Virus record (IMG/VR): IMGVR_UViG_2534681702_000002
Reading direction: 5' to 3' (one strand)
Source: a virus
Taxonomy: Duplodnaviria > Heunggongvirae > Uroviricota > Caudoviricetes
DNA: 15,630 nt
The notes under the pieces were generated by a model. It saw nothing but the letters and a program-made list of their open reading frames with translations, had not been told where the DNA came from and made no database searches. The translations under genes were made by a program, and so were the position numbers. This document shows positions 1 through 15,630 of the stretch, piece by piece. Positions within the stretch are counted from its first letter, which is position 1; each line of letters opens with the position of its first letter.

Positions 1-1164
1 TTACGCCTTCTTTATATCCTCCATAATTCCAGAGTGGGACATATTTGGGACATTATCACCAAAAATGTCGTCTATTTTCCTCGCATGCTCTGTCAAATGA
101 TTAGGCGCAAGGTGAGCATACCTACGAACCATTTCTATGGACTCCCATCCGCCCATTTCCTGAAGCACTGATAATGGGACGCCTGACTGAATCAGCCAGC
201 TTGCCCAGGTGTGTCTGAGGTCATGGAAACGGAAATCTTCAATTCCTGCACGACGACAAGCTGATAGCCATGATGTCTTGCTGTCGATGCGCATCTTCCT
301 GACCGCAGGCGTTGATGTTCCATCTGCTCGCTTAGCCGCCTTGGTATGTACAAACACCCATTTGTGATGCTTGCCTATTTGATCACGCAACACTTTACAG
401 GCGGTATCGTTCAGCGCCACACCAATGGCGCGGTTTGATTTGCTCTCTTCTGGATTCACCCAGGCAACTCGTCGCTGCATGTCGATTTGTTGCCATTCCA
501 GATTTATGATGTTCGACTTTCTCAGACCAGTTGCCAGCGCAAACTTGACGACAGATTTCAGTGGTTCGGGGCACTCATCAATAAGGCGTTTTGCTTCCTC
601 CTTTTCCAGCCATCTGACTCGCTTGTTTCTGACCGCTGGTATCTTGATGACAGGCGCTTTTTCCAGCCACTTCCAGTCGCGTTCTGCAGCACGGAGAATG
701 GCCTTTATCATGGCAAGATGCTTTGCCTTTGTCTGAGTTGATACTGGCTTTGGTTCATAAACAGGCGGTTCTTTACCTTTCCTGATGGCGGCCTGAACTT
801 TCTGTTTCCATATTTCTTTCGTCTTTCTGTTATGCATTCTGCTTACAGCAGAGTAAATCTTTGCCTCCGAGATATCTTTAAGCCTTATACCCTCAAAATG
901 TTCAAGCCAGAACTCAATCCGGCTTTTATCTGAATCGAGAGATTTTTTATCAGCTTTTTCCTCAAGCCATCTTAGGCAGGCCTCTTCAAAAGTGACATCA
1001 GGTAAATCCCCTAGCTTTTCTACTCGCCAGAGTTCTGCTTTTCGCTTGTCGTGCAACTCCTGAGCTTGCCGCTTGTCCTTTGTGCCAAGAGATTCCTTAA
1101 TTCGTTTCCCGCCCGGGAGCGAATACGAGGCATACCATATTTCATTTCTGCGGAAGAGTGACAT
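1..1164 (-). CDS. intD: Phage tyrosine integrase (387 aa), DLP12 IntD-like
   Basis: Full-length minus-strand ORF with ATG at 1164..1162 and GAGGAAAG Shine-Dalgarno upstream. C-terminal region carries the tyrosine-recombinase catalytic motifs (HDLRHT...RRY). The sequence matches my recollection of E. coli K-12 IntD. Confidence 0.88.
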
Positions 1165-1391
1165 TTTCTTTCCTCTGTTATGCCATCACCCGCGCTCACC
1201 TGGACAGTATGCAGCGGAGACTGAAGCGCCGCAATGCAGGCTTGCCGTGTTGTGAGGTAAGGAGATTTTGGCTTGGTTGGATCTTTACGTGTTGCCTGTA
1301 GGCGGCCTGTTCGTATCCAGTTGGTGGCGGTTGGTCTGGATATCTTAAGAAACTGACAGGCCTCATCGAGTGTGAGGCTGTATGATTCCAT
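1020..1391 (-). CDS. xis: Excisionase-like DNA-binding protein (AlpA/Xis family), 123 aa from the ATG at 1391
   Basis: Minus-strand ORF directly upstream of int. ATG at 1391..1389 preceded by GAGGTAACC. N-terminus [31 protein letters not shown] is a typical Xis/AlpA helix-turn-helix. The 3' end overlaps int by 145 nt, which is unusually long for xis, so the C-terminal part may not be native. Confidence 0.6.
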
Positions 1392-1641
1392 GGTTACCTC
1401 TGCTTTTTGAACGCATGTCACGTAACTTCTTAATGTGTTCTGCCGTTTCGATCTCTTCTGCTATCCGATCTGCATCAGCTTTATTCACAGGTTCAAAGTC
1501 ATGATTAAAGCGGAACATGCTGGCGATACATGTTCTGCCTTTTCGGATGTAGTGAACTTTGTTGTGGGTAGAACGCAGGATTTTGCAGGGAGTGCCGTGG
1601 TGGTCGACGTACCAGGTGTTAGGCAAAATGATTCTGAACAT
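1363..1641 (-). CDS. Hypothetical small phage protein (92 aa)
   Basis: Minus-strand ORF with ATG at 1641..1639 and a GAGGTG Shine-Dalgarno 7 nt upstream. Its last ~9 codons overlap the xis start. No recognisable motif. Confidence 0.4.
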   Translation of the reverse strand: MFRIILPNTWYVDHHGTPCKILRSTHNKVHYIRKGRTCIASMFRFNHDFEPVNKADADRIAEEIETAEHIKKLRDMRSKSRGNHGIIQPHTR

Positions 1642-1654
1642 TTTTACACCTCAG

Positions 1655-1714
1655 TTGGAAGGTATGGCGAAAACACAGGTTATGTGGCTGAAAGAGGGGA
1701 TTATTAAGGCGTGA
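1655..1714 (+). pseudogene. 3' remnant (~19 codons) of the gene normally upstream of rusA (ybcO-like), lacking a start codon
   Basis: The frame ending at TGA 1712..1714, overlapping the rusA GTG, translates ...[19 protein letters not shown]. This resembles the C-terminus of the small protein I recall preceding rusA in K-12 (ybcO). The similarity is lost upstream of about 1655. Confidence 0.3.
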
Positions 1715-2073
1715 ATACCTACAGCATCACATTACCCTGGCCTCCGAGCAATAATCGCTATTACCGCCATAATCGCGGGCGCACGCACGTCAGCGCAGAG
1801 GGGCAGGCATACCGCGATAACGTCGCCAGAATCATTAAAAACGCAATGCTGGATATCGGCCTGGCTATCCCTGTGAAAATCCGCATTGAGTGCCACATGC
1901 CGGATCGCCGTCGCCGTGACCTGGATAATCTGCAAAAAGCCGCTTTTGACGCACTCACTAAAGCAGGTTTCTGGCTGGATGATGCTCAGGTCGTTGATTA
2001 CCGCGTTGTGAAGATGCCTGTTACCAAAGGTGGGAGGCTGGAACTGACCATCACCGAAATGGGGAATGAATGA
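1711..2073 (+). CDS. rusA: Holliday-junction resolvase RusA (120 aa), GTG start
   Basis: ORF translation [37 protein letters not shown]... matches recalled RusA over its full length. GTG start at 1711 with AGAGGGG upstream. Confidence 0.92.
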
Positions 2074-2210
2074 TGTTTGAGTTTAATATGGCAGAACTTC
2101 TTCGCCACCGCTGGATGCGCCTGCGCTTATATCGTTTCCCCAGTTCTGTTTTGACCGATTACCGAATACTGAGGAATTACGCCAAAACCCTGACAGGAGC
2201 AGGAGTATGA
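2070..2210 (+). CDS. ylcG: Small protein YlcG-like (46 aa)
   Basis: Not in the ORF track because it is under 60 aa. ATGATG at 2070 overlaps the rusA stop. Translation [46 protein letters not shown] matches recalled YlcG in sequence and in position between rusA and Q. Confidence 0.6.
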
Positions 2211-2295
2211 AGTCAGAGATAACAATCAACTAATACTGTTTTATTGATTTTTGCTTGTAATTGGCGTTCTGGTCTGATTTTTGTGGAGTAAGTTG

Positions 2296-2679
2296 ATGCG
2301 TGATATTCAGATGGTTCTTGAGCGTTGGGGAGCGTGGGCGGCTAATAATCATGAAGATGTGACCTGGTCGTCCATTGCCGCCGGTTTTAAGGGATTAATT
2401 ACTTCAAAAGTAAAATCTCGCCCGCAATGTTGTGACGATGACGCGATGATCATTTGCGGGTGCATGGCCCGTCTGAAAAAGAACAACAGCGATTTGCACG
2501 ATTTATTAGTAGATTATTATGTAGTCGGTATGACATTCATGTCACTGGCAGGTAAGCATTGCTGCTCTGATGGTTATATCGGGAAAAGGTTACAGAAGGC
2601 TGAGGGCATAATTGAAGGGATGTTAATGGCATTAGATATCCGGTTAGAGATGGATATCGTTGTTAATAACTCTAATTAA
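2296..2679 (+). CDS. quuD: Late-gene antiterminator Q (127 aa), phage 82/21-type
   Basis: ATG at 2296 with GGAG upstream (the track ORF begins earlier at a TTG). Cysteine-rich region ([24 protein letters not shown]) typical of Q-family proteins. Lies between rusA/ylcG and the lysis genes as in lambdoid phages. Confidence 0.8.
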
Positions 2680-2695
2680 TATGCCAATTGTTTAC

Positions 2696-2731
2696 TAAAA
2701 ATTATTAAAAATGGGGCGTTGAGACGCCCCC
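2696..2731 (-). terminator. Putative rho-independent terminator for minus-strand (nmpC) transcripts
   Basis: Perfect inverted repeat GGGGCG-ttgaga-CGCCCC at 2713..2730, followed on the minus strand by AUUUUUAAUAAUUUUU. Confidence 0.5.
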
Positions 2732-2820
2732 AAAAATAAAGGGTAATATATAACAGAAGGTTTATATAGTTAGAAGCAAGGTTGTGCTTCTAAAGGAAGT
2801 GGCTTGAGGGAGCCACTTAT

Positions 2821-2858
2821 ATGTTGGGGAGGCAAAGCCTCCCGCAACATATCTTTTT
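2821..2858 (+). terminator. Putative rho-independent terminator downstream of Q (tR'-like)
   Basis: Inverted repeat ATGTTGGGGAGGC-aaa-GCCTCCCGCAACAT at 2821..2850, followed by a TCTTTTT tract on the plus strand. Two further short hairpins lie at 2771..2792 and 2797..2820. Confidence 0.5.
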
Positions 2859-2868
2859 CGTAATCAGA

Positions 2869-3951
2869 TTAGAACTGATACACCAGACCTACAGCGACGA
2901 TGTCGTCGGTATCAATACCAGCTGTTTTGGTAAACTTACTATCGTCAATTAAGTTGATTTTGTAATCAACAAAAGTGGACATGTTTTTATTAAAGTAGTA
3001 AGTAGCACCGACATCGACATACTTGACTAAGTCTCGGTCACCATGAACACCAAGGTCTTTACCTTTTGACTGAAGGTAAGCAACAGATGGTCGCAGACCG
3101 AAGTCAAACTGATATTGTGCTACTGCTTCAAAGTTTTGTGCTTTGTTTGCAATATGGTTATTACCAAAAACGGTCATATTCTGAGTTTCAGAATATGTGG
3201 TAGCCAGATAGATATTGTTCGCATCATATTTCAGGCCTGCAGCCCATACTTCCGCATTTTTGCCGGAGGCATTGAATTTGCTCTTACCATAGGCGACCTG
3301 ACCGTCAGTGCGATCTGATTTAGCATAGGTTGCACCCACGCCGAATCCTTCATACTCATAAGTAGTGGAGAAACCGAAACCATCACCATTGGCTTCAGTT
3401 ACGTCAGTGCGGTCATTTTTACCCTGATACTGAGCAGCAAAGTTCAGGCCATCGACCAGACCAAAGAAGTCGTTGTTACGATAGGTTGCAACACCAGTGG
3501 TGCGACCAGTCATGAACACATCTGTTTGGGTCCAGGTATCGCCACCGAATTCTGGCAGAACGTCAGTCCACGCACCGATGTCGTATGCTACACCGTAGTT
3601 ACGGCCGTAATCGATTGAGCCGTAGTCACCGAATTTCAGGCCTGCAAATGCAAGACGGGTTTTGTCTTTGGAGGAACCTTGAGATTCAGCGCGGTTGCCT
3701 TTGAATTCATATTCCCACTGACCGAAACCAGTCAGTTGATCGTTGATTTGGGTTTCACCTTTGAAGCCAAGACGGGCATAAGTAGTATCACCATCATCTG
3801 CATCGTTAGAGGAAAAGTAGTGCTTGGCATTAACTTTCCCGTACAGATCCAGCTTGTTACTGTCTTTATTATAAATTTCAGCTGCCTGAGCAGACATCGT
3901 CATCAGTACTGATGCAGCTACAGCAGAAATTGCCACTGTTAATTTTTTCAT
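2869..3951 (-). CDS. nmpC: Outer-membrane porin, OmpC/Lc family (NmpC-like), 360 aa, apparently intact
   Basis: Signal peptide [23 protein letters not shown] followed by [16 protein letters not shown] and a C-terminal ...AVGLVYQF beta-barrel terminus. This is the classic general-porin signature and matches recalled NmpC/Lc. Confidence 0.85.
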
Positions 3952-6035: not shown

Positions 6036-6394
6036 CTTATTATCCTGCATTGTTAAAAACGGCAGAATCCTATGTGACAACAATTAAACGATAGTTAAAT
6101 GGATTGATGAAAATTAAAACTATATAGGTGGATGCTCAGCCTATTGGAGGAGGGGGGCACTCAGAATCCTGTGGAATGAAATAAACCGCTCTTTCTGTCC
6201 ATTACCCTTTTAGCTGCGCTGTATCGTCGCCGTATTCCCGCATTAACCATGACCGTAGCCCGACGGGGAATTCCTTCTGCGTGAGTGTGCGGGAATAATC
6301 AAAAACGATGCACACCGGGTTTTACTGTGCTGACAGACGCAGGGTTACCCTCATAGTCGCTTTTCCGGTGCGATGGTGGAAGAAACCGGGATGT

Positions 6395-6589
6395 TTATTC
6401 ATCATCACTCTGGATTGATGTATATGCTCTCTTTTCTGACGTTAGTCTCCGACGGCAGGCTTCAATGACCCAGGCTGAGAAATTCCCAGACCCTTTTTGC
6501 TCAAGAGCGATGTTAATTTGTTCAATCATTTGGTTAGGAAAGCGGATGTTGCGGGTTGTTGTTCTGCGGGTTCTGTTCTTCGTTGACAT
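6395..6589 (-). CDS. ylcI: Small basic protein (64 aa), YlcI-like (DUF3950-type); possible ribbon-helix-helix DNA binder
   Basis: Arginine-rich N-terminus MSTKNRTRRTTTRNIRFPNQMIEQINIALEQKGSGNFSAWVIEACRRRL. Sits immediately upstream of cos/nohD, where I recall ylcI in K-12. The assignment is from memory. Confidence 0.45.
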   Translation of the reverse strand: MSTKNRTRRTTTRNIRFPNQMIEQINIALEQKGSGNFSAWVIEACRRRLTSEKRAYTSIQSDDE

Positions 6590-6749
6590 GAGGTTGCCCC
6601 GTATTCAGTGTCGCTGATTTGTATTGTCTGAAGTTGTTTTTACGTTAAGTTGATGCAGATCAATTAATACGATACCTGCGTCATAATTGATTATTTGACG
6701 TGGTTTGATGGCGTAGATGCACGTTGTGACATGTAGATGATAATTATTA

Positions 6750-6977
6750 TCATTTTGCGGGTCCTTTCCGGCGATCCGACAGGTTACGGGGCGGCGACCT
6801 CGCGGGTTTTCGCTATTTATGAAAATTTTCCGGTTTAAGGCATTTCCGTTCTTCTTCGTCGTAACTTAATGTTTTTATTTAAAATACCCCCTGAAAAGAA
6901 AGGAAACGACAGGTGCTGAAAACGAGCTTTTGGGCCTCTGTCGTTTCCTTTCTCTGTTTTTGGCCGTGGAATGAACA
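6750..6977. other. Lambda-type cos site (cosQ-cosN-cosB) with lambda right-end-like flank
   Basis: GGGCGGCGACCT, the lambda 12-nt cohesive-end sequence, lies at 6789..6800. It is preceded by ...CCGACAGGTTACG (lambda right terminus) and followed by CGCGGGTTTTCGCTATTTATGAAAATTTTCCGGTTTAAGG... (lambda left-end cosB region), running up to the Nu1 start. Recognition is against the lambda sequence as I remember it. Confidence 0.8.
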
Positions 6978-7523
6978 ATGGAAGTCAACAAAAAGCAGCT
7001 GGCTGACATTTTCGGTGCGAGTATCCGTACCATTCAGAACTGGCAGGAACAGGGAATGCCCGTTCTGCGAGGCGGTGGCAAGGGTAATGAGGTGCTTTAT
7101 GACTCTGCCGCCGTTATAAGATGGTATGCCGAAAGGGATGCTGAAATTGAGAACGAAAAGCTGCGCCGGGAAGTTGAAGAACTGCGGCAGGCCAGCGAGA
7201 CAGATCTCCAGCCAGGGACTATTGAGTACGAACGCCATCGACTTACGCGTGCGCAGGCCGACGCACAGGAGCTGAAAAATGCCAGAGACTCCGCTGAAGT
7301 GGTGGAAACCGCATTCTGTACTTTCGTGCTGTCGCGGATCGCAGGTGAAATTGCCAGTATTCTCGACGGGATCCCCCTGTCGGTGCAGCGGCGTTTTCCG
7401 GAACTGGAAAACCGACATGTTGATTTCCTGAAACGGGATATCATCAAAGCCATGAACAAAGCAGCCGCGCTGGATGAACTGATACCGGGGTTGCTGAGTG
7501 AATATATCGAACAGTCAGGTTAA
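6978..7523 (+). CDS. nohD: Terminase small subunit Nu1 (181 aa)
   Basis: MEVNKKQLADIFGASIRTIQNWQEQGMPVLRGGGKGNEVLYDSAAVIRWYAERD... is near-identical to recalled lambda Nu1 across its length. Confidence 0.92.
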   Translation: MEVNKKQLADIFGASIRTIQNWQEQGMPVLRGGGKGNEVLYDSAAVIRWYAERDAEIENEKLRREVEELRQASETDLQPGTIEYERHRLTRAQADAQELKNARDSAEVVETAFCTFVLSRIAGEIASILDGIPLSVQRRFPELENRHVDFLKRDIIKAMNKAAALDELIPGLLSEYIEQSG

Positions 7524-7713
7524 CAGGCTGCGGCATTTTGTCCGCGCCGGGCTTCGCTCACTGTTCAGGCCGGAGCCACAGACCGCCGTTGAATGGGCGG
7601 ATGCTAATTACTATCTCCCGAAAGAATCCGCATACCAGGAAGGGCGCTGGGAAACACTGCCCTTTCAGCGGGCCATCATGAATGCGATGGGCAGCGACTA
7701 TAACTGTTATTAA
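7498..7713 (+). pseudogene. Terminase large subunit (gpA) N-terminal fragment, about 66 native codons then divergence and a stop
   Basis: MNISNSQVNRLRHFVRAGLRSLFRPEPQTAVEWADANYYLPKESAYQEGRWETLPFQRAIMNAMGSDY matches the recalled lambda gpA N-terminus. Downstream of about 7700 the sequence is unrelated (NCY*). The start overlaps the Nu1 end as in lambda. Confidence 0.85.
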
Positions 7714-8626
7714 TGAAAATCCGACAGCACAAGGATATCAGGCAATTGCTGTAAACACGAATGATGCTTACACCTGCCCGGCAGGTTCTTATACGACGAT
7801 ATCGTGTCTGACGAAAAGTGATAATTCCCGGTGTCGTGCAAGGTTCGGAAAAATGTCTGATAATGGTGCGTTTGTTTTTCATTCAGATGCAGTTCTGGAT
7901 CCTGTTACGGGAAATGTTGTTCATGGAAATAATGTGACGGTGACGGCAGAAAGAGTCGGTGAATGGTGGTTGTTTACCGCCACTCTTTTTGCAGATGCGG
8001 AAATGATAATCAGCTCAAGATTTGAAATCCTGGCGATGCCTGGAATCAGTATTATCCCCAATGGCTCTACGTTAGATATTGCGATGCCTCAGGCGGAGAT
8101 TGGGTCGTACAGGACGTCATTTATCATTACTGAAGGGGCTCCTGGCACTCGCTCCAGCGACATGGTGACAATACCTGTAAGAAACAATATTCACCGATTA
8201 CCATTCAGTGCTCTTGTTGAAGTTAATAAAAACTGGGATATCCCTCCCAGCAAATCACCATTAATCTTTAATGTTAAAGATTATCAGGAAAATGGTCTGT
8301 TCACGCATGGATTCCGTGGTAATAATTTCTCTGATGCCGGTTCTCCTTTTATTTCTATGGGAGGGTGTAATAAATATGTGGCAACAACCCAGAGGAAAAT
8401 CATTTCAGGCTTCCGTTGTGGCGCTGATGGAGATGTTCAGGCCGTATGTAATGGTGAATTATCTGTTGCGGCAAAAACAACATGGACTTCAATTGTTCCA
8501 CGGGCAGTATTGCGAATTGGAGGGCAGGGCACTAATGGGGAGTATCATCTTTTTGGTCATATCCGTAATCTGCGTATCTGGCATAAAGAATTAACTGATG
8601 CGCAAATGGGGGAGAGTATTAAATGA
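7682..8626 (+). CDS. Chimeric ORF (314 aa): C-terminal fragment of a phage fibre / receptor-binding-type protein with a ConA/LamG-like C-terminus; its first 7 codons are terminase-A sequence read out of frame
   Basis: C-terminal ...NGEYHLFGHIRNLRIWHKELTDAQMGESIK resembles the end of LamG/concanavalin-like lectin domains. The ATG at 7682 has no convincing Shine-Dalgarno and sits inside the gpA remnant. Domain call is pattern recognition only. Confidence 0.4.
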   Translation: MRWAATITVINENPTAQGYQAIAVNTNDAYTCPAGSYTTISCLTKSDNSRCRARFGKMSDNGAFVFHSDAVLDPVTGNVVHGNNVTVTAERVGEWWLFTATLFADAEMIISSRFEILAMPGISIIPNGSTLDIAMPQAEIGSYRTSFIITEGAPGTRSSDMVTIPVRNNIHRLPFSALVEVNKNWDIPPSKSPLIFNVKDYQENGLFTHGFRGNNFSDAGSPFISMGGCNKYVATTQRKIISGFRCGADGDVQAVCNGELSVAAKTTWTSIVPRAVLRIGGQGTNGEYHLFGHIRNLRIWHKELTDAQMGESIK

Positions 8627-8904
8627 AAGATTTAACACTCAAATTTGCAGACAGGGCCGACTTTTCGGCCTTTATGGAGAGTATTGGCTATTATGATGAC
8701 GAGTCGATGCAGGATGATATTCTTATTGACGTGATAGGTAACGTGTACAAAGAAACCGGAGAACTGACTGAAGATGGCGAACCGGTATGTGTTAAGGAAG
8801 ACGGATATTTTGTAAACGTGCGCATCATTAATGATGTAAAAAAATCGTCAATATTCGATAAATACGCGGTTGTTGTTGAGCATCAACTTCGTGGCTGGAT
8901 GTGA
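8623..8904 (+). CDS. Hypothetical acidic protein (93 aa)
   Basis: ATG overlaps the stop of the preceding ORF (AAATGA). No recognisable motif. Separated from the next ORF, in the same frame, by one TGA plus 9 nt. Confidence 0.45.
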   Translation: MKDLTLKFADRADFSAFMESIGYYDDESMQDDILIDVIGNVYKETGELTEDGEPVCVKEDGYFVNVRIINDVKKSSIFDKYAVVVEHQLRGWM

Positions 8905-8913
8905 GGGAGACAA

Positions 8914-9618
8914 ATGGCTACATCGACAGTAATTCCAGGAGATATCACCACGCTAAAGGGAGATGTCAGTAAAACTAAGGAAGATATTTCCTCAATTAAC
9001 GGAAAAGTATCAACGCTTCAGACTGATATGACCAGTGCAAAGCAGGATATCAGCACCAGATACACAAAAACTGAAGTTGATAATAAGCTGAAAAACAAAC
9101 TGGAAGTGAACGATCTGGAAAGCGGTCGTTATGGTGGAGATTTTTACCCGTTGACTGGCCGTGAAGCGTTTTATATGTGGGGATTGGGCACGACTACAGC
9201 GGCGGCAAACCTTTATCTTAATCCTGACCCTGCAATTTCGTCTGTACTGCGGTCAACATCGTCTATTCGCTATAAACATTCAGTAGAGACGATAGATTCA
9301 GAGCACGCCGATCTCATTTTCAGGATGCGCCCTGTGTGGTACAGGTCGCAATACGAAAATGACAGGCGTGACTGGGGATTCTACGGATTGATTGCCGAGG
9401 AAGTAGGAGAAATTGCCCCTCAGTTTGTACACTGGCGACCAGCTAACGAAGATGATGCTCCTGAAGCTATTTCCAGCAATGGCCTTGTTGCCGAAGGTGT
9501 AATGTACGAACGTCTGGTTGTTCCACTGATTCACCATATCCAGAAGCTGACTGAAAGAGTTGATGAACTTGAGTCAGAATTAAAGTTGTTATCCGTTTCC
9601 CGAAGCGATATCGGATAA
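8914..9618 (+). CDS. Tail-fibre-like protein (234 aa): N-terminal coiled coil plus C-terminal intramolecular-chaperone (peptidase S74-type) domain
   Basis: GAGGGAG Shine-Dalgarno before the ATG. C-terminal segment ...RMRPVWYRSQ...GFYGLIAEEVGEIAPQFVHW...GVMYERLVVPLIHHIQKLTERVDELESELK fits the conserved pattern of fibre/tailspike auto-cleaving chaperone domains. N-terminal 70 residues are heptad-like (KGDVSKTKEDISSINGKVSTLQTDMTSAKQDIS). Confidence 0.6.
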   Translation: MATSTVIPGDITTLKGDVSKTKEDISSINGKVSTLQTDMTSAKQDISTRYTKTEVDNKLKNKLEVNDLESGRYGGDFYPLTGREAFYMWGLGTTTAAANLYLNPDPAISSVLRSTSSIRYKHSVETIDSEHADLIFRMRPVWYRSQYENDRRDWGFYGLIAEEVGEIAPQFVHWRPANEDDAPEAISSNGLVAEGVMYERLVVPLIHHIQKLTERVDELESELKLLSVSRSDIG

Positions 9619-9628
9619 AGGAGGAGTA

Positions 9629-9922
9629 ATGGATATAACACCTTTCCTTCATGCGCTTTGTGCTGTGGCTGCGCAGCTACTGATTGGTCTTTTTACCGGG
9701 AACTGGGCTTACGGGGCGATAGCCGGTTGTACGTTCTTCATTGCGCGTGAACACACCCAGGCAGAATATCGCTGGATCGAAATGTTCGGGCATGGCAAGC
9801 GAATGAATATGCCGTGGTGGGGCGGTTTTGATACACGTGCATGGGATGTGGCAAGCCTGATGGATTTTGCTGTGCCGGTGGTGGCGTGTCTGCTGGTCTG
9901 GCTGTTGGTTAATCGTGGGTGA
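9629..9922 (+). CDS. Small membrane protein (97 aa) with two predicted transmembrane helices
   Basis: Strong AGGAGG Shine-Dalgarno 6 nt before the ATG. Hydrophobic stretches at about residues 8-32 and 77-94, with a Trp/Arg-rich loop between them. No recognisable family. Confidence 0.55.
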   Translation: MDITPFLHALCAVAAQLLIGLFTGNWAYGAIAGCTFFIAREHTQAEYRWIEMFGHGKRMNMPWWGGFDTRAWDVASLMDFAVPVVACLLVWLLVNRG

Positions 9923-9932
9923 AAAAAGGTGA

Positions 9933-10052
9933 GCTGTATATGCAACGGAGGAAGAAAACTCGTTGCTGGAAGCCTGGAAAAAGTATCGGGTGCTGCTAAA
10001 CCGTGTGGACACTTCCGTAGCACCAGATATCGAGTGGCTTATTCAACCATAA
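9933..10052 (+). pseudogene. tfaX: 3' remnant of a tail-fibre-assembly (Tfa) gene, about 39 codons, no start codon
   Basis: Open frame translates ...[36 protein letters not shown], matching the recalled C-terminus of lambda-type Tfa proteins. Position directly upstream of appY matches K-12 tfaX. Confidence 0.55.
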
Positions 10053-10596
10053 TAAACAGTATGTATATCATAGGTTATTAATTGTGAGTTTTTTCGGTGT
10101 GTTATTTGTTTGTTTGATGTTATGCTTTTGCGCCCCAAAAGGTTGTTTAGATGTATTTTATCAATTGATTTTCAATGTCGTTTAATAAAGAAAAATTAAG
10201 CAAGCTGGATGTTGGTTTTTTGTTAATTGAATGGTTCTAATAATGTTTTTTTACTGTTGTTGAATGTGACTTGATAAGAAATGCAAGTAAAAATGATACT
10301 CTTTTTATTTTAAATTCAAACGGTTGACATATATATAGCAAGAGGTTTCAGGTGCGTTGTAGTGAGTTTATGTTAATAAAAAGTATAGTAAGCGTTGAAA
10401 AATGTAACTTTGAAATACGTTAGAATAAAAACAATATACATATAATAATTTAATCTTAAATGAAATTTATTAAAATTTGCAAACTATAATTTTGTGTATA
10501 AAAATATAAATGCACATCATCCTGATTATGATTGTGTATTTAATTGGTTGTTATTTGACTGCTATCAACTTGTTTTAATTTTATGATAGGTGCAAG

Positions 10597-11339
10597 ATGG
10601 ATTATGTTTGCTCCGTAGTTTTCATCTGTCAATCATTTGATTTAATTATAAACAGGAGAGTTATCTCGTTCAAAAAAAATTCATTGTTTATTGTAAGCGA
10701 CAAAATTAGAAGGGAGTTACCAGTATGCCCCTCTAAACTAAGAATTGTTGATATAGATAAGAAAACATGTTTATCCTTTTTTATCGACGTGAATAATGAG
10801 CTGCCTGGCAAATTTACTCTTGATAAGAATGGCTATATTGCTGAAGAGGAACCTCCATTATCGCTTGTTTTTTCTCTGTTTGAAGGGATTAAAATAGCAG
10901 ACTCACACTCCCTTTGGTTAAAAGAAAGACTATGTATATCCTTACTTGCCATGTTCAAAAAACGCGAAAGTGTAAATTCATTTATACTAACAAATATAAA
11001 TACATTCACCTGTAAAATTACTGGAATAATCAGTTTTAATATTGAGCGGCAATGGCATTTAAAAGATATTGCGGAATTGATTTATACGAGTGAAAGTTTA
11101 ATAAAAAAAGATTAAGGGATGAAGGAACGTCATTTACTGAAATATTGAGAGATACTAGGATGAGGTATGCAAAAAAACTCATAACTTCAAACTCTTATTC
11201 TATCAATGTCGTAGCCCAGAAATGTGGCTATAACAGTACTTCATATTTCATATGTGCATTTAAAGATTATTATGGTGTCACGCCATCTCATTATTTTGAG
11301 AAAATAATCGGCGTCACAGATGGAATAAACAGGTAATGA
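10597..11339 (+). pseudogene. appY: AraC-family regulator AppY, disrupted by a 1-bp frameshift at an A7 run (11103..11109) and by an IS1 insertion 12 nt before its native stop
   Basis: The 172-aa ORF (10597..11115) and the 63-aa ORF (11145..11336) are in different frames, yet together form a continuous AraC-type C-terminal helix-turn-helix domain (...[19 protein letters not shown] / [25 protein letters not shown]...[18 protein letters not shown]). The native last codons (AAA ACA ATT GAC TGA) lie at 12882..12896, beyond the IS1 pair. Confidence 0.85.
11323..11331. repeat. 9-bp target-site duplication GAATAAACA, left copy, of the outer IS1
   Basis: Identical 9-mer immediately flanks both ends of the outer IS1 (11323..11331 and 12876..12884). 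Confidence 0.85.
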
Positions 11340-11378
11340 CTCCAACTTATTGATAGTGTTTTAGGTAGTGACTCCAAC

Positions 11379-11882
11379 TTACTGATAGTGTTTTATGTTC
11401 AGATAATGCCCGATGACCTTGTCATGCAGCTCCACCGATTTTGAGAACGACAGTGACTTCCGTCCCAGCCTTGCCAGATGTTGTCTCAGATTCAGATTAT
11501 GTCGCTCAATGCGCTGAGTGTAACGCTTGCTGATAACGTGCAGCTTTCCCTTCAGGCGTGATTCATACAGCGGCCAGCCATCCGTCATCCATACCACGAC
11601 CTCAAAGGCCGACAGCAGGCTCAGAAGACGCGCCAGTGTGGCCAGAGTGCGTTCACCGAAAACGTGCGCCACAACTGTCCTCCGTATCCTGTCATACGCG
11701 TAAAACAGCCAGCGCTGACGTGATTTAGCACCGACGTAGCCCCACTGTTCGTCCATTTCCGCGCAGACAATCACATCACTGCCCGGTTGTATGCGCGAGG
11801 TTACCGACTGCGGCCTGAGTTTTTTAAGTGACGTAAAACCGTGTTGAGGCCAACGCCCATAATGCGGGCAGTTGCCCGGCAT
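11379..11882 (-). CDS. insB: IS1 InsB reading frame (167 aa), expressed as the InsAB' transposase by -1 frameshifting; inner copy
   Basis: Translation matches IS1 InsB. Overlaps insA in the -1 frame. Identical at protein level to the copy at 14634..15137. Confidence 0.9.
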
Positions 11883-12076
11883 CCAACGCCATTCATGGCC
11901 ATATCAATGATTTTCTGGTGCGTACCGGGTTGAGAAGCGGTGTAAGTGAACTGCAGTTGCCATGTTTTACGGCAGTGAGAGCAGAGATAGCGCTGATGTC
12001 CGGCGGTGCTTTTGCCGTTACGCACCACCCCGTCAGTAGCTGAACAGGAGGGACAGCTGATAGAAACAGAAGCCAC
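11801..12076 (-). CDS. insA: IS1 InsA (91 aa), inner copy
   Basis: [43 protein letters not shown]... is the zinc-finger plus HTH InsA. The A6C frameshift motif (TTAAAAAAC) lies at its 3' end. Confidence 0.9.
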
Positions 12077-12104
12077 TGGAGCACCTCAAAAACACCATCA
12101 TACA

Positions 12105-12626
12105 CTAAATCAGTAAGTTGGCAGCATCACCGTGTTTTATGTTCAGATAATGCCCGATGACTTTGTCATGCAGCTCCACCGATTTTGAGAACGACAGCGA
12201 CTTCCGTCCCAGCCGTGCCAGGTGCTGCCTCAGATTCAGGTTATGCCGCTCAATTCGCTGCGTATATCGCTTGCTGATTGCGTGCAGCTTTCCCTTCAGG
12301 CGGGATTCATACAGCGGCCAGCCATCCGTCATCCATATCACCACGTCAAAGGGTGACAGCAGGCTCATAAGACGCCCCAGCGTCGCCATAGTGCGTTCAC
12401 CGAATACGTGCGCAACAACCGTCTTCCGGAGCCTGTCATACGCGTAAAACAGCCAGCGCTGGCGCGATTTAGCCCCGACGTATCCCCACTGTTCGTCCAT
12501 TTCCGCGCAGACGATGACGTCACTGCCCGGCTGTATGCGCGAGGTTACCGACTGCGGCCTGAGTTTTTTAAATGGCGGAAAATCGTGTTGAGGCCAACGC
12601 CCATAATGCGGGCGGTTGCCCGGCAT
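12105..12626 (-). CDS. insB: IS1 InsB reading frame, outer copy; C-terminus altered (…[11 protein letters not shown]) because the ORF runs into the inserted inner IS1
   Basis: About 90% identical to the inner InsB. The last two native codons (YQ) are replaced by read-through into the inner IS1 end, extending the ORF to 173 aa. Confidence 0.8.
12132..12139. repeat. 8-bp target-site duplication GTGTTTTA, right copy, of the inner IS1 (left copy at 11356..11363)
   Basis: Direct 8-bp repeat, itself part of the outer IS1 sequence, flanking the inner 768-bp element. Confidence 0.85.
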
Positions 12627-12820
12627 CCAACGCCATTCATGGCCATATCAATGATTTTCTGGTGCGTACCGGGTTGAGAAGCGGTGTAAGTGAACTGCAG
12701 TTGCCATGTTTTACGGCAGTGAGAGCAGAGATAGCGCTGATGTCCGGCAGTGCTTTTGCCGTTACGCACCACCCCGTCAGTAGCTGAACAGGAGGGACAG
12801 CTGATAGAAACAGAAGCCAC
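12545..12820 (-). CDS. insA: IS1 InsA (91 aa), outer copy
   Basis: InsA-like. Differs from the inner copy at two residues (…GLNTIFRHL versus …GLNTVLRHL). Confidence 0.9.
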
Positions 12821-12875
12821 TGGAGCACCTCAAAAACACCATCATACACTAAATCAGTAAGTTGGCAGCATCACC

Positions 12876-12884
12876 GAATAAACA
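12876..12884. repeat. 9-bp target-site duplication GAATAAACA, right copy, of the outer IS1; also restores the native appY 3' end
   Basis: Same 9-mer as 11323..11331. Reading across it gives ...GGA ATA AAC AAA ACA ATT GAC TGA (G I N K T I D *). Confidence 0.85.
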
Positions 12885-13103
12885 AAACAATTGACTGATA
12901 ATGTTTATTACAAGTTGTCTACATGTTAATTATAATATTATACAGCGTTTTTTTGATGTGATATTCTGGAACCATTAATTTGTAATTGGGTTGCTGTCGC
13001 CTATTTTATACATGCTATAATTGATGGTTTTCTATGTGATTTAGTTAATAACCTTCTGGGTTTATTTTAAGGGTTAATTGTTACATTGAAATGGCTAGTT
13101 ATT

Positions 13104-13128
13104 CCCCGGGGCGATTTTCACCTCGGGG
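13104..13128 (-). terminator. Possible weak terminator hairpin downstream of ompT
   Basis: CCCCGGGG-cgattttca-CCTCGGGG stem with one G-U pair, about 19 nt beyond the ompT stop. No convincing U-tract on the minus strand. Confidence 0.25.
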
Positions 13129-13146
13129 AAATTTTAGTTGGCGTTC

Positions 13147-14100
13147 TTAAAATGTGTACTTAAGACCAGCAGTAGTGATGAAGTTATAGTTTTCTATACC
13201 TGCTCCATTTTTGCTGTAGTCTGAAGTGTTATTATTGTGATCATAAAGTGAAGTATTACCTTTTTTATTCGTAACCCGATTCCATGCGCCTTCAACATAA
13301 ACTTTTGCGTTAGGTGTGACGTAATAACCTGCATTGACTGCAACAGAATAGTAATTTTGGTCTTTGACCTTACTGCGATAAGTGATTCTTTTTCCCGGGT
13401 CATAGTGTTCATCGTTATCAGATGATTCCACCCAGCCGCTGTATTTAAATGTGCCACCGAGTTCAAAATCTTCATAACGATAACTTCCAGTCAAGCCAAT
13501 GTAGGGCATTTTAAAACGTTGTTTGTAGCCGATTGCTCTTTCTCCATTCGGGAAGGAGCCGATATCATCTCTGAATCCCTCCTCAGAACTGTAGATATAG
13601 GAACCACCTCTGGCTGTAAAGCTATAACGGCTTTCCTGATATCCGGCCATGAGTCCCAGGCGGTAATTGGGTTCGTTGAGGAGCCAACCTTTGATATTCA
13701 GATCAAATTCGTTGGCATAATTGAGTTGTGTATCAGGGTGTCTACTTTCATCCGTCCAGGTTCCGGGGTTACTGGAATCCATCCAGTCCTGATCGACCAT
13801 ATTGCCACCTCGGCTGCCGAGAGTTGTCCAGCCAGCAGCCCCGATAGATATCTGGGGCATCAAATCCCAATTAATTGCACCTTTAATAATTGCAGCGTTA
13901 TTGAATTTCCAATCGAGTTGACTGACTTTTCGGCCTCCTTCTTCGGCTAGATAAACACGCTCTTTTGTTTTTCCGCTCAGAGTTCCAAAACTAATGTCCG
14001 CATTTATGTTGTCAGGAGTAAACGATATAGTCTCGGTAGAAGCAAAAGAGCTGATCGCAATAGGGGTTGTCAGGACTATTCCCAGAAGTTTCGCCCGCAT
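13147..14100 (-). CDS. ompT: Outer-membrane protease OmpT (omptin, protease VII), 317 aa
   Basis: MRAKLLGIVLTTPIAISSFASTETISFTPDNINADISFGTLSGKTKERVYLAEEGGRKVSQLDWKFNNAAIIKGAINWDL... matches recalled OmpT over the full length. Ends with the beta-barrel terminus ...AGLKYTF. Confidence 0.95.
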   Translation of the reverse strand: MRAKLLGIVLTTPIAISSFASTETISFTPDNINADISFGTLSGKTKERVYLAEEGGRKVSQLDWKFNNAAIIKGAINWDLMPQISIGAAGWTTLGSRGGNMVDQDWMDSSNPGTWTDESRHPDTQLNYANEFDLNIKGWLLNEPNYRLGLMAGYQESRYSFTARGGSYIYSSEEGFRDDIGSFPNGERAIGYKQRFKMPYIGLTGSYRYEDFELGGTFKYSGWVESSDNDEHYDPGKRITYRSKVKDQNYYSVAVNAGYYVTPNAKVYVEGAWNRVTNKKGNTSLYDHNNNTSDYSKNGAGIENYNFITTAGLKYTF

Positions 14101-14439
14101 AAAAGTTCTCCATTCAATCGTTTTAATGATTGAATATGTATTTTTTATATCTAACTTAATGAGTCAATTACATATTGCTCCACTGTTTATATTTTGTTTA
14201 GTATTGAATGATTATCACAATGCGCTATCTGTTTTTGGTTTAATTATCTGTTATTGTTTCATATTGCGGTTTTACTGTGTGGTTTTTTTATGCTTTTGTG
14301 GTGCTTTTATCTATTTAAGTGCCATGCCTTTAGAGGCATATAAGCGAAAATAGCATGAGGTTTATCCTCAATTACTATGTTTTTGGTGATGCTGCCAACT
14401 TACTGATTTAGTGTATGATGGTGTTTTTGAGGTGCTCCA

Positions 14440-14715
14440 GTGGCTTCTGTTTCTATCAGCTGTCCCTCCTGTTCAGCTACTGACGGGGTGGTGCGTAACG
14501 GCAAAAGCACCGCCGGACATCAGCGCTATCTCTGCTCTCACTGCCGTAAAACATGGCAACTGCAGTTCACTTACACCGCTTCTCAACCCGGTACGCACCA
14601 GAAAATCATTGATATGGCCATGAATGGCGTTGGATGCCGGGCAACTGCCCGCATTATGGGCGTTGGCCTCAACACGGTTTTACGTCACTTAAAAAACTCA
14701 GGCCGCAGTCGGTAA
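14440..14715 (+). CDS. insA: IS1 InsA (91 aa), third copy
   Basis: Protein identical to InsA of the inner IS1. Confidence 0.9.
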
Positions 14716-15137
14716 CCTCGCGCATACAACCGGGCAGTGATGTGATTGTCTGCGCGGAAATGGACGAACAGTGGGGCTACGTCGGTGCTAAATCACGTCA
14801 GCGCTGGCTGTTTTACGCGTATGACAGGATACGGAGGACAGTTGTGGCGCACGTTTTCGGTGAACGCACTCTGGCCACACTGGCGCGTCTTCTGAGCCTG
14901 CTGTCGGCCTTTGAGGTCGTGGTATGGATGACGGATGGCTGGCCGCTGTATGAATCACGCCTGAAGGGAAAGCTGCACGTTATCAGCAAGCGTTACACTC
15001 AGCGCATTGAGCGACATAATCTGAATCTGAGACAACATCTGGCAAGGCTGGGACGGAAGTCACTGTCGTTCTCAAAATCGGTGGAGCTGCATGACAAGGT
15101 CATCGGGCATTATCTGAACATAAAACACTATCAGTAA
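14634..15137 (+). CDS. insB: IS1 InsB reading frame (167 aa), third copy
   Basis: Protein identical to InsB of the inner IS1. A6C frameshift motif TTAAAAAACTC at about 14690. Confidence 0.9.
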
Positions 15138-15154
15138 GTTGGAGTCACTACCCG

Positions 15155-15630
15155 TTAGCGGATATTTGTTTGCCTCCTTTTTTTTACCCAGCATACCCCA
15201 TCCCAACAATTTGAATTAAATGTCGTAAAATTGATAACTTCTTTACCTTTTGAAAAATATGTTATTGGGCAAAACTCATCTCCACTTAATGGTTTAAAGC
15301 TGGTTATTATGTCACAATTTAATTGTTGTGATAGTGATTGAGCGATGAAATCAGTTAGAGATGGAAGATACTTGCTTTCAATCGATGTTGTTGATGTGCC
15401 GAAATCAACTTCATAAGAAAAATCAATCTTCGCTAGTAATTCAATATATTCTGCATCTTTGTCAATAAAAGATGTGTCATAAGTAATGTTTTTTTATACT
15501 CATTTACATCAAAGTAGTCATATTTTAATATCGAAAAGTCAATGTCTAGAGCATTTACAAACTTATAAATACTATCGGTTAGTTTACTTTTATCTTTATA
15601 CTCTATGAGTATACTTGATTTGGTGATCAT
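15155..15630 (-). pseudogene. Low-GC gene of unknown function, frameshifted at an A7 run (plus-strand T7 at 15489..15495); stop codon 2 bp from the IS1 end
   Basis: The minus-strand ATG sits exactly at the window edge, so the true N-terminus may lie beyond it. Frame a reads MITKSS...DYFDVNEYKK and stops at 15433. The adjacent frame continues NITYDTSFIDKDAEYIELLAKIDFSYEVDFG...CWVKKRRQTNIR* for about 113 codons with no Met, so it is a continuation rather than a separate gene. Identity unknown. Confidence 0.4.

Follow-up and report, generated by a model that had tools for sequence, protein, structure and literature searches.

A deletion joint between terminase and side-tail-fibre sequence in the cryptic prophage DLP12 of enterotoxigenic Escherichia coli

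We analysed a stretch of 15,630 nucleotides of viral DNA (IMG/VR record IMGVR_UViG_2534681702_000002; the window) and located a deletion joint at positions 7700..7702, where nt 203 of the terminase large-subunit gene A is joined to nt 1419-1421 of a side-tail-fibre gene. This joint is very probably a scar of decay in the cryptic prophage DLP12, and the 314-codon open reading frame (ORF) that reads across it (7682..8626, plus strand; RefSeq WP_023486745.1) a non-functional pseudogene remnant. The decay of DLP12 is already known; what we call the ETEC joint adds one more allele to this class of scar.

DLP12 is a textbook example of a truncated prophage, and its lambda-like lysis-cos-nu1-A' block is equally well known. 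The window corresponds to this prophage at argU in enterotoxigenic E. coli of the O6:H16 type: positions 6900-9700 were 100% identical to the chromosomes of many enterotoxigenic E. coli, including the O6:H16 strains M9682-C1 and TW10598. Integration is at argU (tRNA-Arg) with intD (window 1-1164), and appY and ompT mark the far boundary. In the RefSeq annotation of the identical locus the gene order is tRNA-Arg (argU), intD, rusA, ylcG, quuD, an OmpC-like porin gene, essD, rrrD, rzpD, iss/bor, ylcI, nohD, an 'incomplete' hypothetical CDS, a gene for a 'phage head spike fiber domain-containing protein', three small genes and a tail-fibre-assembly fragment, followed by appY and ompT. The window is collinear with the DLP12 loci of K-12 and E. 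coli B, and carries the lysis-cos-nu1-A' block at about 98% identity to lambda. For K-12 a matching value, 98% over 3353 bp, has been published, and the recombination assays of De Paepe et al. relied on this very block of homology (PMC3945230). A second, unrelated deletion joint lies at 1656-1659 of the window.

BLAST comparison of lambda nt 1-3000 with the window defined the left side of the ETEC joint. A block at 6789..7700 (plus strand, 98.4% identity) is collinear with lambda nt 1-913, comprising the cos end, nu1 and the first 203 nt of A, and lambda 914-3000 has no counterpart in the window. Within this block, nohD (6978..7523, plus strand; so named in RefSeq) encodes an intact Nu1-type small terminase subunit of 181 aa, which matched Pfam Phage_Nu1 over its full length (E 2.4e-101). 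In ungapped comparison, window 7498-7700 equals lambda 711-913, that is gene A nt 1-203, at 100% identity with zero mismatches, and similarity to gene A collapses from window 7701. The preliminary description had placed an abrupt end of the gpA match after about 66 codons at roughly 7700, and the lambda alignment bore this out, with no gpA similarity found past 7700. The gpA frame retains 67 codons plus 2 nt; codon 68 still reads Tyr by chance, and the frame then continues N-C-Y-stop. The resulting pseudogene is a 71-aa ORF (7498..7713, plus strand), in which three unrelated codons and a stop codon follow the gpA part. Its residues 1-68 are identical to lambda gpA and match the PHROG terminase large subunit over the same residues (E 2e-40), and RefSeq flags it as incomplete with the C-terminus missing. 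Ending at codon 68, the remnant lacks the P-loop KSARVGYS (gpA residue 76 on), which is the Walker A segment of lambda gpA, and with it the ATPase and nuclease domains; no Pfam terminase domain was detected in it. The P-loop is visible in the longer gpA remnant of K-12.

The right side of the joint was traced to a full-length parent gene, which was located via the collection of E. coli genomes; a protein-database search gave mostly partial entries and did not return it. From 7700 on, the window equals position 20001 on of the E. coli B locus (L002). A 781-aa gene occupies L002 18582-20927, under the annotation 'prophage tail fiber N-terminal domain-containing protein', and position 20001 opens its codon 474. 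Over 7700-8626 (927 nt) there were 0 differences from the E. coli B gene, and 0 from the copy in a Rac-site prophage of strain CLSC36 (L004). Since these identities are exact over hundreds of bases, chance is of no concern. The parent occupies the same locus in E. coli B and occurs in other lambdoid prophages, which confirms the earlier proposal that the 314-aa frame is a C-terminal fragment of a receptor-binding or fibre-type protein. It is DLP12's own side tail fibre and no foreign gene.

The breakpoint can be placed only within 7700-7702, as judged by three-way comparison of the window, lambda A and the E. coli B fibre gene and by comparison of alleles. Microhomology at the joint amounts to 1 nt (A7700) if the terminase partner had the lambda/K-12 allele (GAC TAC ATC) and to 3 nt (ATA) if it had the MSHS 472 allele (GAC TAT ATC). 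The three-way comparison revealed no remnant of an insertion sequence (IS), no filler and no leftover intermediate genes. Since only 1-3 nt are shared and neither IS remnant nor filler is found, the joint points to illegitimate recombination at minimal microhomology. A homology-driven deletion was ruled out by the 1-3 nt in common, and an IS-mediated one by the lack of IS sequence at the joint, the IS1 copies of the window lying more than 3.6 kb downstream.

The exact 81-nt junction was present in 31 of 5426 complete E. coli genomes, the collection in which all joint frequencies were counted. That the junction is an artefact of assembly or annotation, a reading for which only the general possibility speaks, has a practically negligible probability and is excluded as far as assembly is concerned, because the identical 81 nt recur in these 31 independent genomes from several laboratories. 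The joint also occurs in DLP12 copies that differ elsewhere: those of AR_0085 and TUM9803 keep more of the nin region, and each has its own IS insertion. The joint at 7700 is therefore older than the deletion at 1656-1659 of the window.

The 314-codon ORF is the by-product of this junction. Its codons 1-6 (7682-7699, MRWAAT) are out-of-frame gpA DNA, and its codons 7-314 (7700-8623) are residues 474-781 of the side tail fibre. The ATG straddles the gpA codons AAT|GCG, and a TGA at 7679-7681 stands immediately 5' of it. These observations substantiate the view in the preliminary description that the ORF borrows its ATG from out-of-frame terminase sequence and is an accidental chimera, with six codons of terminase DNA and 308 of fibre. 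That description also spoke of a fusion of terminase to fibre, which holds for the DNA joint and not for a gpA-fibre protein, as the two ORFs overlap in different frames.

Profile searches placed the retained part of the fibre within its family. ORF residues 6-313 aligned to positions 474-793 of the 793 of PHROG 1419 ('tail protein'). The 781-aa parent consists of a phage_tail_N domain (residues 1-131), an NF048003 'GTA head spike fiber' domain (434-625) and a C-terminal domain. Pfam search detected the tail-attachment domain phage_tail_N (PF08400) only in the parent, and it is absent from the 314-aa ORF. The first retained domain, a truncated 'GTA head-spike-fibre'-type beta domain, lies at 7703..8155 (plus strand; ORF residues 8-158). 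The ORF matched NCBIfam NF048003 at 43.8 bits against a cut-off of 36, with partial coverage of the profile (positions 43-181 of 182), whereas the parent matched positions 1-181. Since the match begins at position 43, the break lies about 40 residues inside the domain and not at a domain boundary.

The second retained domain is a C-terminal ConA/LamG-like lectin-type beta-sandwich, the presumed ligand-binding end of the fibre (8159..8623, plus strand; approximately ORF residues 160-314). The ORF itself matched Laminin_G_3 (PF13385) below threshold (16.7 bits against a gathering cut-off of 27.6; E 0.0085; residues 252-308), and 21 of its 24 relatives matched at E <= 0.01. An AlphaFold2 model built from the 24 relatives predicted two all-beta domains joined by a low-confidence linker (residues 145-159), with a mean pLDDT of 78.7; both domains fold with reasonable confidence, and the C-terminal one has the beta-sandwich jelly-roll common to LamG, pentraxin and CBM40. 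The lectin-like end noted in the preliminary description is thus supported at the level of the predicted fold, and ligand binding is presumed.

Phage homologues of the ORF are C-terminal parts of longer fibres, found in T5-like Salmonella and Escherichia phages (40-44% identity), Dhillonvirus-type phages and lambdoid phages. Apart from truncated forms of the same gene, database relatives were mostly 380-550 aa long, all with N-terminal extensions, and no independently starting family of about 310 aa was found among the homologue matches. The 314-aa protein thus has no complete gene family of its own among the homologues found, consistent with its being a fragment. The parent belongs with the lambda Stf family (PF08400) through its phage_tail_N domain, and the 5' end of its gene has 83.7% DNA identity to the start of lambda stf. 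In contrast, the retained C-terminal 40% is unrelated to lambda Stf and belongs to a module that T5-like and Dhillonvirus-type phages share, with amino-acid identities of about 37-44%. Lambda orf-314, a 314-aa fibre fragment of lambda PaPa that is likewise 945 nt long, was considered as a relative and rejected (BLASTP E 2.2); the shared length is coincidence. The family profile of the NF048003 region matched the RcGTA head spike fibre Rcc01080 (PDB 6tb9; E 4.5e-17) over about 235 residues. Unlike the RcGTA head spike, the domain of the ORF belongs to a tail side fibre and is N-terminally truncated, and the RefSeq name 'phage head spike fiber domain-containing protein' denotes a domain, not a role.

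Downstream of the ORF, the fibre cassette continues with three intact genes on the plus strand, identified by Pfam and PHROG matches: a 93-aa gene (8623-8904), a 234-aa gene with a Peptidase_S74 chaperone domain (8914-9618) and a 97-aa gene (9629-9922). Together (8623..9922) they have 93.6% nucleotide identity to phage PhiR49_1, and in E. coli B, in CLSC36 and on a pLF82-type plasmid they likewise follow the full-length fibre gene. The cassette ends with a C-terminal fragment of tfa (9942..10052, plus strand; RefSeq), at which alignment with the tfaX region of K-12 resumes. This fragment is not part of the 7700 deletion, because it too lies 3' of full-length fibre copies. The cassette is mobile, with identical copies in a Rac-site prophage, a dusA-site prophage and a pLF82-type phage-plasmid and related ones in free lambdoid phages, as would suit an insertion of the fibre fragment and cassette, through recombination with another phage, beside a gpA that had lost its end earlier. 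However, in E. coli B the full fibre stands at the corresponding position of DLP12 together with this cassette, with flanks of 99.9% identity (fibre through appY) and 99.8% (upstream of the joint), and an insertion would need two illegitimate joints where one novel joint is seen. We therefore regard such an insertion as extremely unlikely and favour deletion within a resident DLP12 late region.

Other DLP12 loci show that the head and tail genes were lost in several ways. In E. coli B (65 genomes) the left break is at lambda nt 699, in nu1, which is joined to nt 631 of J; this Nu1::J locus has a near-identical fibre cassette and, unlike the window, keeps part of J and the whole 781-aa fibre. 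The GF4 type (5 genomes) is a B-type locus, with its left break at 699, that has undergone a further J::fibre deletion. It also truncates the same fibre gene, cutting at window coordinate 7861 as against 7700 in the window, and yields a 264-aa chimeric ORF (WP_225103351.1). In MSHS 472 the left break is at lambda nt 2268, joined to other DNA; this broken gene was the most complete terminase seen. K-12 MG1655 (up to 365 genomes with its joint) underwent the same kind of event: aaaD/tfaD (b4634, b0561), which lie in the same prophage at the same locus and are the annotated equivalent of the ETEC feature, combine a gpA stub with a fragment from the tail-fibre region in a chimeric ORF, and the whole head-tail module is missing. 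However, the gpA part of K-12 breaks off at lambda nt 1018 (codon ~103), not 913; the partner is the tail-fibre-assembly gene (tfa), not the fibre; and the fusion is in frame, with tfaD starting at gpA Met61, MNAMGSDYIREV... These differences in break, partner and frame indicate a deletion independent of that in the window. The alignment of the window with K-12 ends exactly at 7700, which briefly suggested a left breakpoint shared with K-12 or a hotspot; this was ruled out, since gpA in K-12 runs to lambda nt 1018 and 7700 is where the window leaves gpA.

E. coli B lacks gpA bases that the window type has, whereas the window lacks J and fibre sequence that E. coli B has. Since each keeps what the other lacks, neither derives from the other, and the two arose by independent deletions from a more complete ancestor. 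As the joints of K-12, E. coli B, GF4 and MSHS 472 all differ, the structural module was lost independently several times. The part of J in E. coli B is collinear with lambda J from nt 16135, and lom is absent; together with the stf-like 5' end of the fibre gene, this indicates that the ancestral late region was lambda-like. The ancestor would have had a late operon of the order nu1-A-head-tail-J, followed by the 781-aa side-tail-fibre gene and the small accessory genes. Illegitimate recombination would then have taken out what followed in the terminase gene, every head and tail gene and the 5' 60% of the fibre gene, a loss of about 19.5 kb (19-20 kb) if the module was lambda-sized. No intact argU DLP12-type prophage with both a complete gpA and the 781-aa fibre was found among the loci examined.

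The preliminary description held that the structural module was lost in one step. The loss itself stands; the single step would be the parsimonious reading of a clean joint. Two or more nested deletions, each removing the joint before it, are an unlikely though quite conceivable origin: DLP12 has been deleted repeatedly, GF4 adds a J::fibre deletion to a B-type locus, and the window has its second, unrelated joint at 1656-1659. However, the ETEC joint is clean, free of filler, IS remnants and intermediate genes, and no intermediate with a longer gpA joined to the fibre was present among the loci examined. Nested deletions would leave the identity of the feature unchanged. The sequence comparisons show the identities, the breakpoint, the frames, the domains present and the distribution of the joint; from them we infer a single step, a deletion of the size given above, and an ORF that is neither expressed nor functional.

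Upstream of the joint the fibre frame has no stop for six codons, up to an ATG that is out of frame in terminase DNA, and this is the reason that gene callers report a 314-aa protein. Such a product would lack phage_tail_N, the central shaft and the first ~40 residues of the first retained domain, and would have no tail to attach to. We examined signals for its expression. Anti-Shine-Dalgarno (anti-SD) pairing in the 17 nt 5' of the ORF's ATG was -3.4 kcal/mol, in the 22nd percentile of the window background, so that by this measure no Shine-Dalgarno (SD) sequence above background was found for ORF 7682-8626. The three intact cassette genes gave -8.5 to -11.6 kcal/mol, and the start of the parent fibre in E. 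coli B -5.9. However, the pairing of nohD is equally weak (-3.3), and a weak SD is therefore not decisive against translation. A candidate for translational coupling, TAATG at 7711-7715 at the end of the gpA stub, was rejected: it opens an ORF of 13 codons in another frame, which does not lead into that of the fibre. Inspection of the six-residue leader by eye revealed no secretion signal. A promoter and terminator scan of 6300-10700 gave promoter-like counts at or below the shuffled expectation and nothing informative. The DLP12 late operon is transcribed at some level according to work in K-12, and an mRNA for the ORF may exist.

The ORF was intact in the carriers examined. Selection cannot be read from substitutions, because the fragment is nucleotide-identical to intact genes and too little time has passed. 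Of the other genomes that carry the joint, TUM9803 shows a change (G286R) of a residue that hardly varies in the family, and AR_0085 has a frameshift in the adjacent 234-aa gene; these may be signs of relaxed constraint, of an anecdotal kind. The ORF is most likely untranslated or non-functional and inherited passively.

A precedent for expression of such a fragment is StfE2 of the cryptic prophage e14, likewise a chimeric ORF derived from tail fibres in a cryptic prophage; it comes from two chimeric e14 fibre genes and was reported to block T2 adsorption (PMC12529663). By analogy, the DLP12 fragment might be a domesticated, expressed lectin-like protein that masks a surface receptor or glycan and lowers the adsorption of competing phages. 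The ORF is open in 31 genomes, the confidently predicted lectin-type C-terminal domain is kept, and the downstream cassette genes are intact with good SD sequences, as this proposal would have it. However, StfE2 is the product of a regulated, site-specific inversion, and an anti-phage phenotype has been reported for it, whereas ORF 7682-8626 arose by irreversible deletion and nothing indicates a function. Its SD is not above background, its six-residue leader has no secretion signal that we noticed by eye, and its first retained domain is cut 40 residues inside. TUM9803 carries its change at a nearly invariant residue, the identity to intact fibre genes leaves nothing that indicates adaptation, and other lineages cut the fibre gene elsewhere or lost it altogether. 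We thus consider domestication highly unlikely and prefer the reading as a passively inherited remnant.

The practical value of the finding lies mostly in annotation: WP_023486745.1, which RefSeq lists like any ordinary protein, is a truncated side-tail-fibre gene with a six-codon leader of out-of-frame terminase DNA. For the comparable chimera of the GF4 type, one record gives the name 'terminase' and a second one 'phage head spike fiber domain-containing protein'. A biological role is very improbable, although by analogy with StfE2 a little protein could be made from the ORF on the late transcript of DLP12, with the lectin-like domain binding a glycan or porin on the host surface and passively lowering the adsorption of phages that need this receptor. 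A related possibility is that the fragment and the three accessory genes would serve as a recombination reservoir, a host-range module for incoming lambdoid phages. As an example of decay, the joint leaves existing knowledge of cryptic prophages unchanged. It adds to a picture in which at least four independent deletions with distinct breakpoints stripped a single prophage of its head-tail module in separate lineages of E. coli, and all of these lineages retained the lysis genes, nohD, bor/iss and the porin gene.

Comparison of the window with the DLP12 locus of E. coli B (L002) identified a second deletion joint in the window's DLP12 prophage, at 1656-1659. At this position approximately 6.6 kb of the E. 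coli B prophage (L002 2454-9071) is missing from the window, with the loss of ren, emrE, ybcK, ybcL, ybcM, ybcN, ninE and ybcO, and the joint carries 4 nt of microhomology (TGGA). Since AR_0085 and TUM9803, which both possess the gpA::fibre joint, keep more of the region deleted here, the 1656-1659 deletion is later than the gpA::fibre joint. In the window, the nmpC/ompC-like porin gene of DLP12 (360 aa; 2869-3951, minus strand) is an intact ORF. The E. coli B copy is disrupted by IS1, and that of AR_0085 by an IS4-like element (ISVsa5).

In the last part of the window (12876-15630), the ompT gene (13147-14100) has IS1 copies on both sides. Two neighbouring copies (window 11364-12875) are of different sequence types, with 94.5% and 98.8% identity to E. 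coli B IS1A, and an inverted copy occupies 14384-15156. Past this inverted IS1 the window sequence jumps to L002 33999, and envY, ybcH, nfrA and nfrB are therefore absent; all four genes are present in E. coli B and in the O6:H16 strain M9682-C1. This suggests that an IS1-mediated deletion was responsible for the loss of envY-ybcH-nfrA-nfrB. The appY gene (window 10597-11336), whose 3' end adjoins the two neighbouring IS1 copies, is frameshifted, with a stop after approximately codon 172 compared with 246-249 aa in reference proteins.

Chimeric ORFs are also present in other DLP12 loci. The annotated tfaD CDS of K-12 (L005 3035-3598) starts at gpA Met61 and encodes 43 in-frame terminase residues, including the KSARVGYS motif, followed by Tfa sequence; K-12 tfaD is thus an in-frame gpA::Tfa chimera. 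In the two GF4-type loci (L006 3972-4766 and L007 3972-4766), a 264-aa chimera (WP_225103351.1) consists of a J-fragment leader and the fibre C-terminus. The RefSeq name of this protein differs by record, being either 'terminase' or 'phage head spike fiber domain-containing protein'. The lambda fibre-fragment ORF 'orf-314' (lambda 21029-21973) and the window ORF at 7682-8626 are equal in length (945 nt, 314 aa). The two are nevertheless unrelated (BLASTP E 2.2), and the match in size, which might be misleading, is fortuitous.

Within window 8508-9950, we observed that the fibre gene has an internal mosaic boundary at approximately 8508. From here, the DNA of the last ~40 fibre codons and of the three small genes that follow is 93-94% identical to that of lambdoid phages including PhiR49_1. 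For the remaining fibre C-terminal part, relatives exist at the protein level only (37-44%); they occur in lambdoid phages and in phages of the T5-like and Dhillonvirus types. One gene of the four-gene fibre cassette encodes a Peptidase_S74 chaperone-domain protein of 234 aa, and the fibre built from the cassette may be branched or consist of two components.

Over window 7700-8510, the fibre cassette was 100% identical in the pLF82-type phage-plasmid pMTY12368_pLF82 (L009 2642-5918), a dusA-site prophage (L008) and the Rac-site prophage of strain CLSC36 (L004). The prophages carrying this cassette at other chromosomal sites have different head modules. Its presence both in these prophages and on a phage-plasmid therefore identifies the fibre cassette as an exchangeable module.
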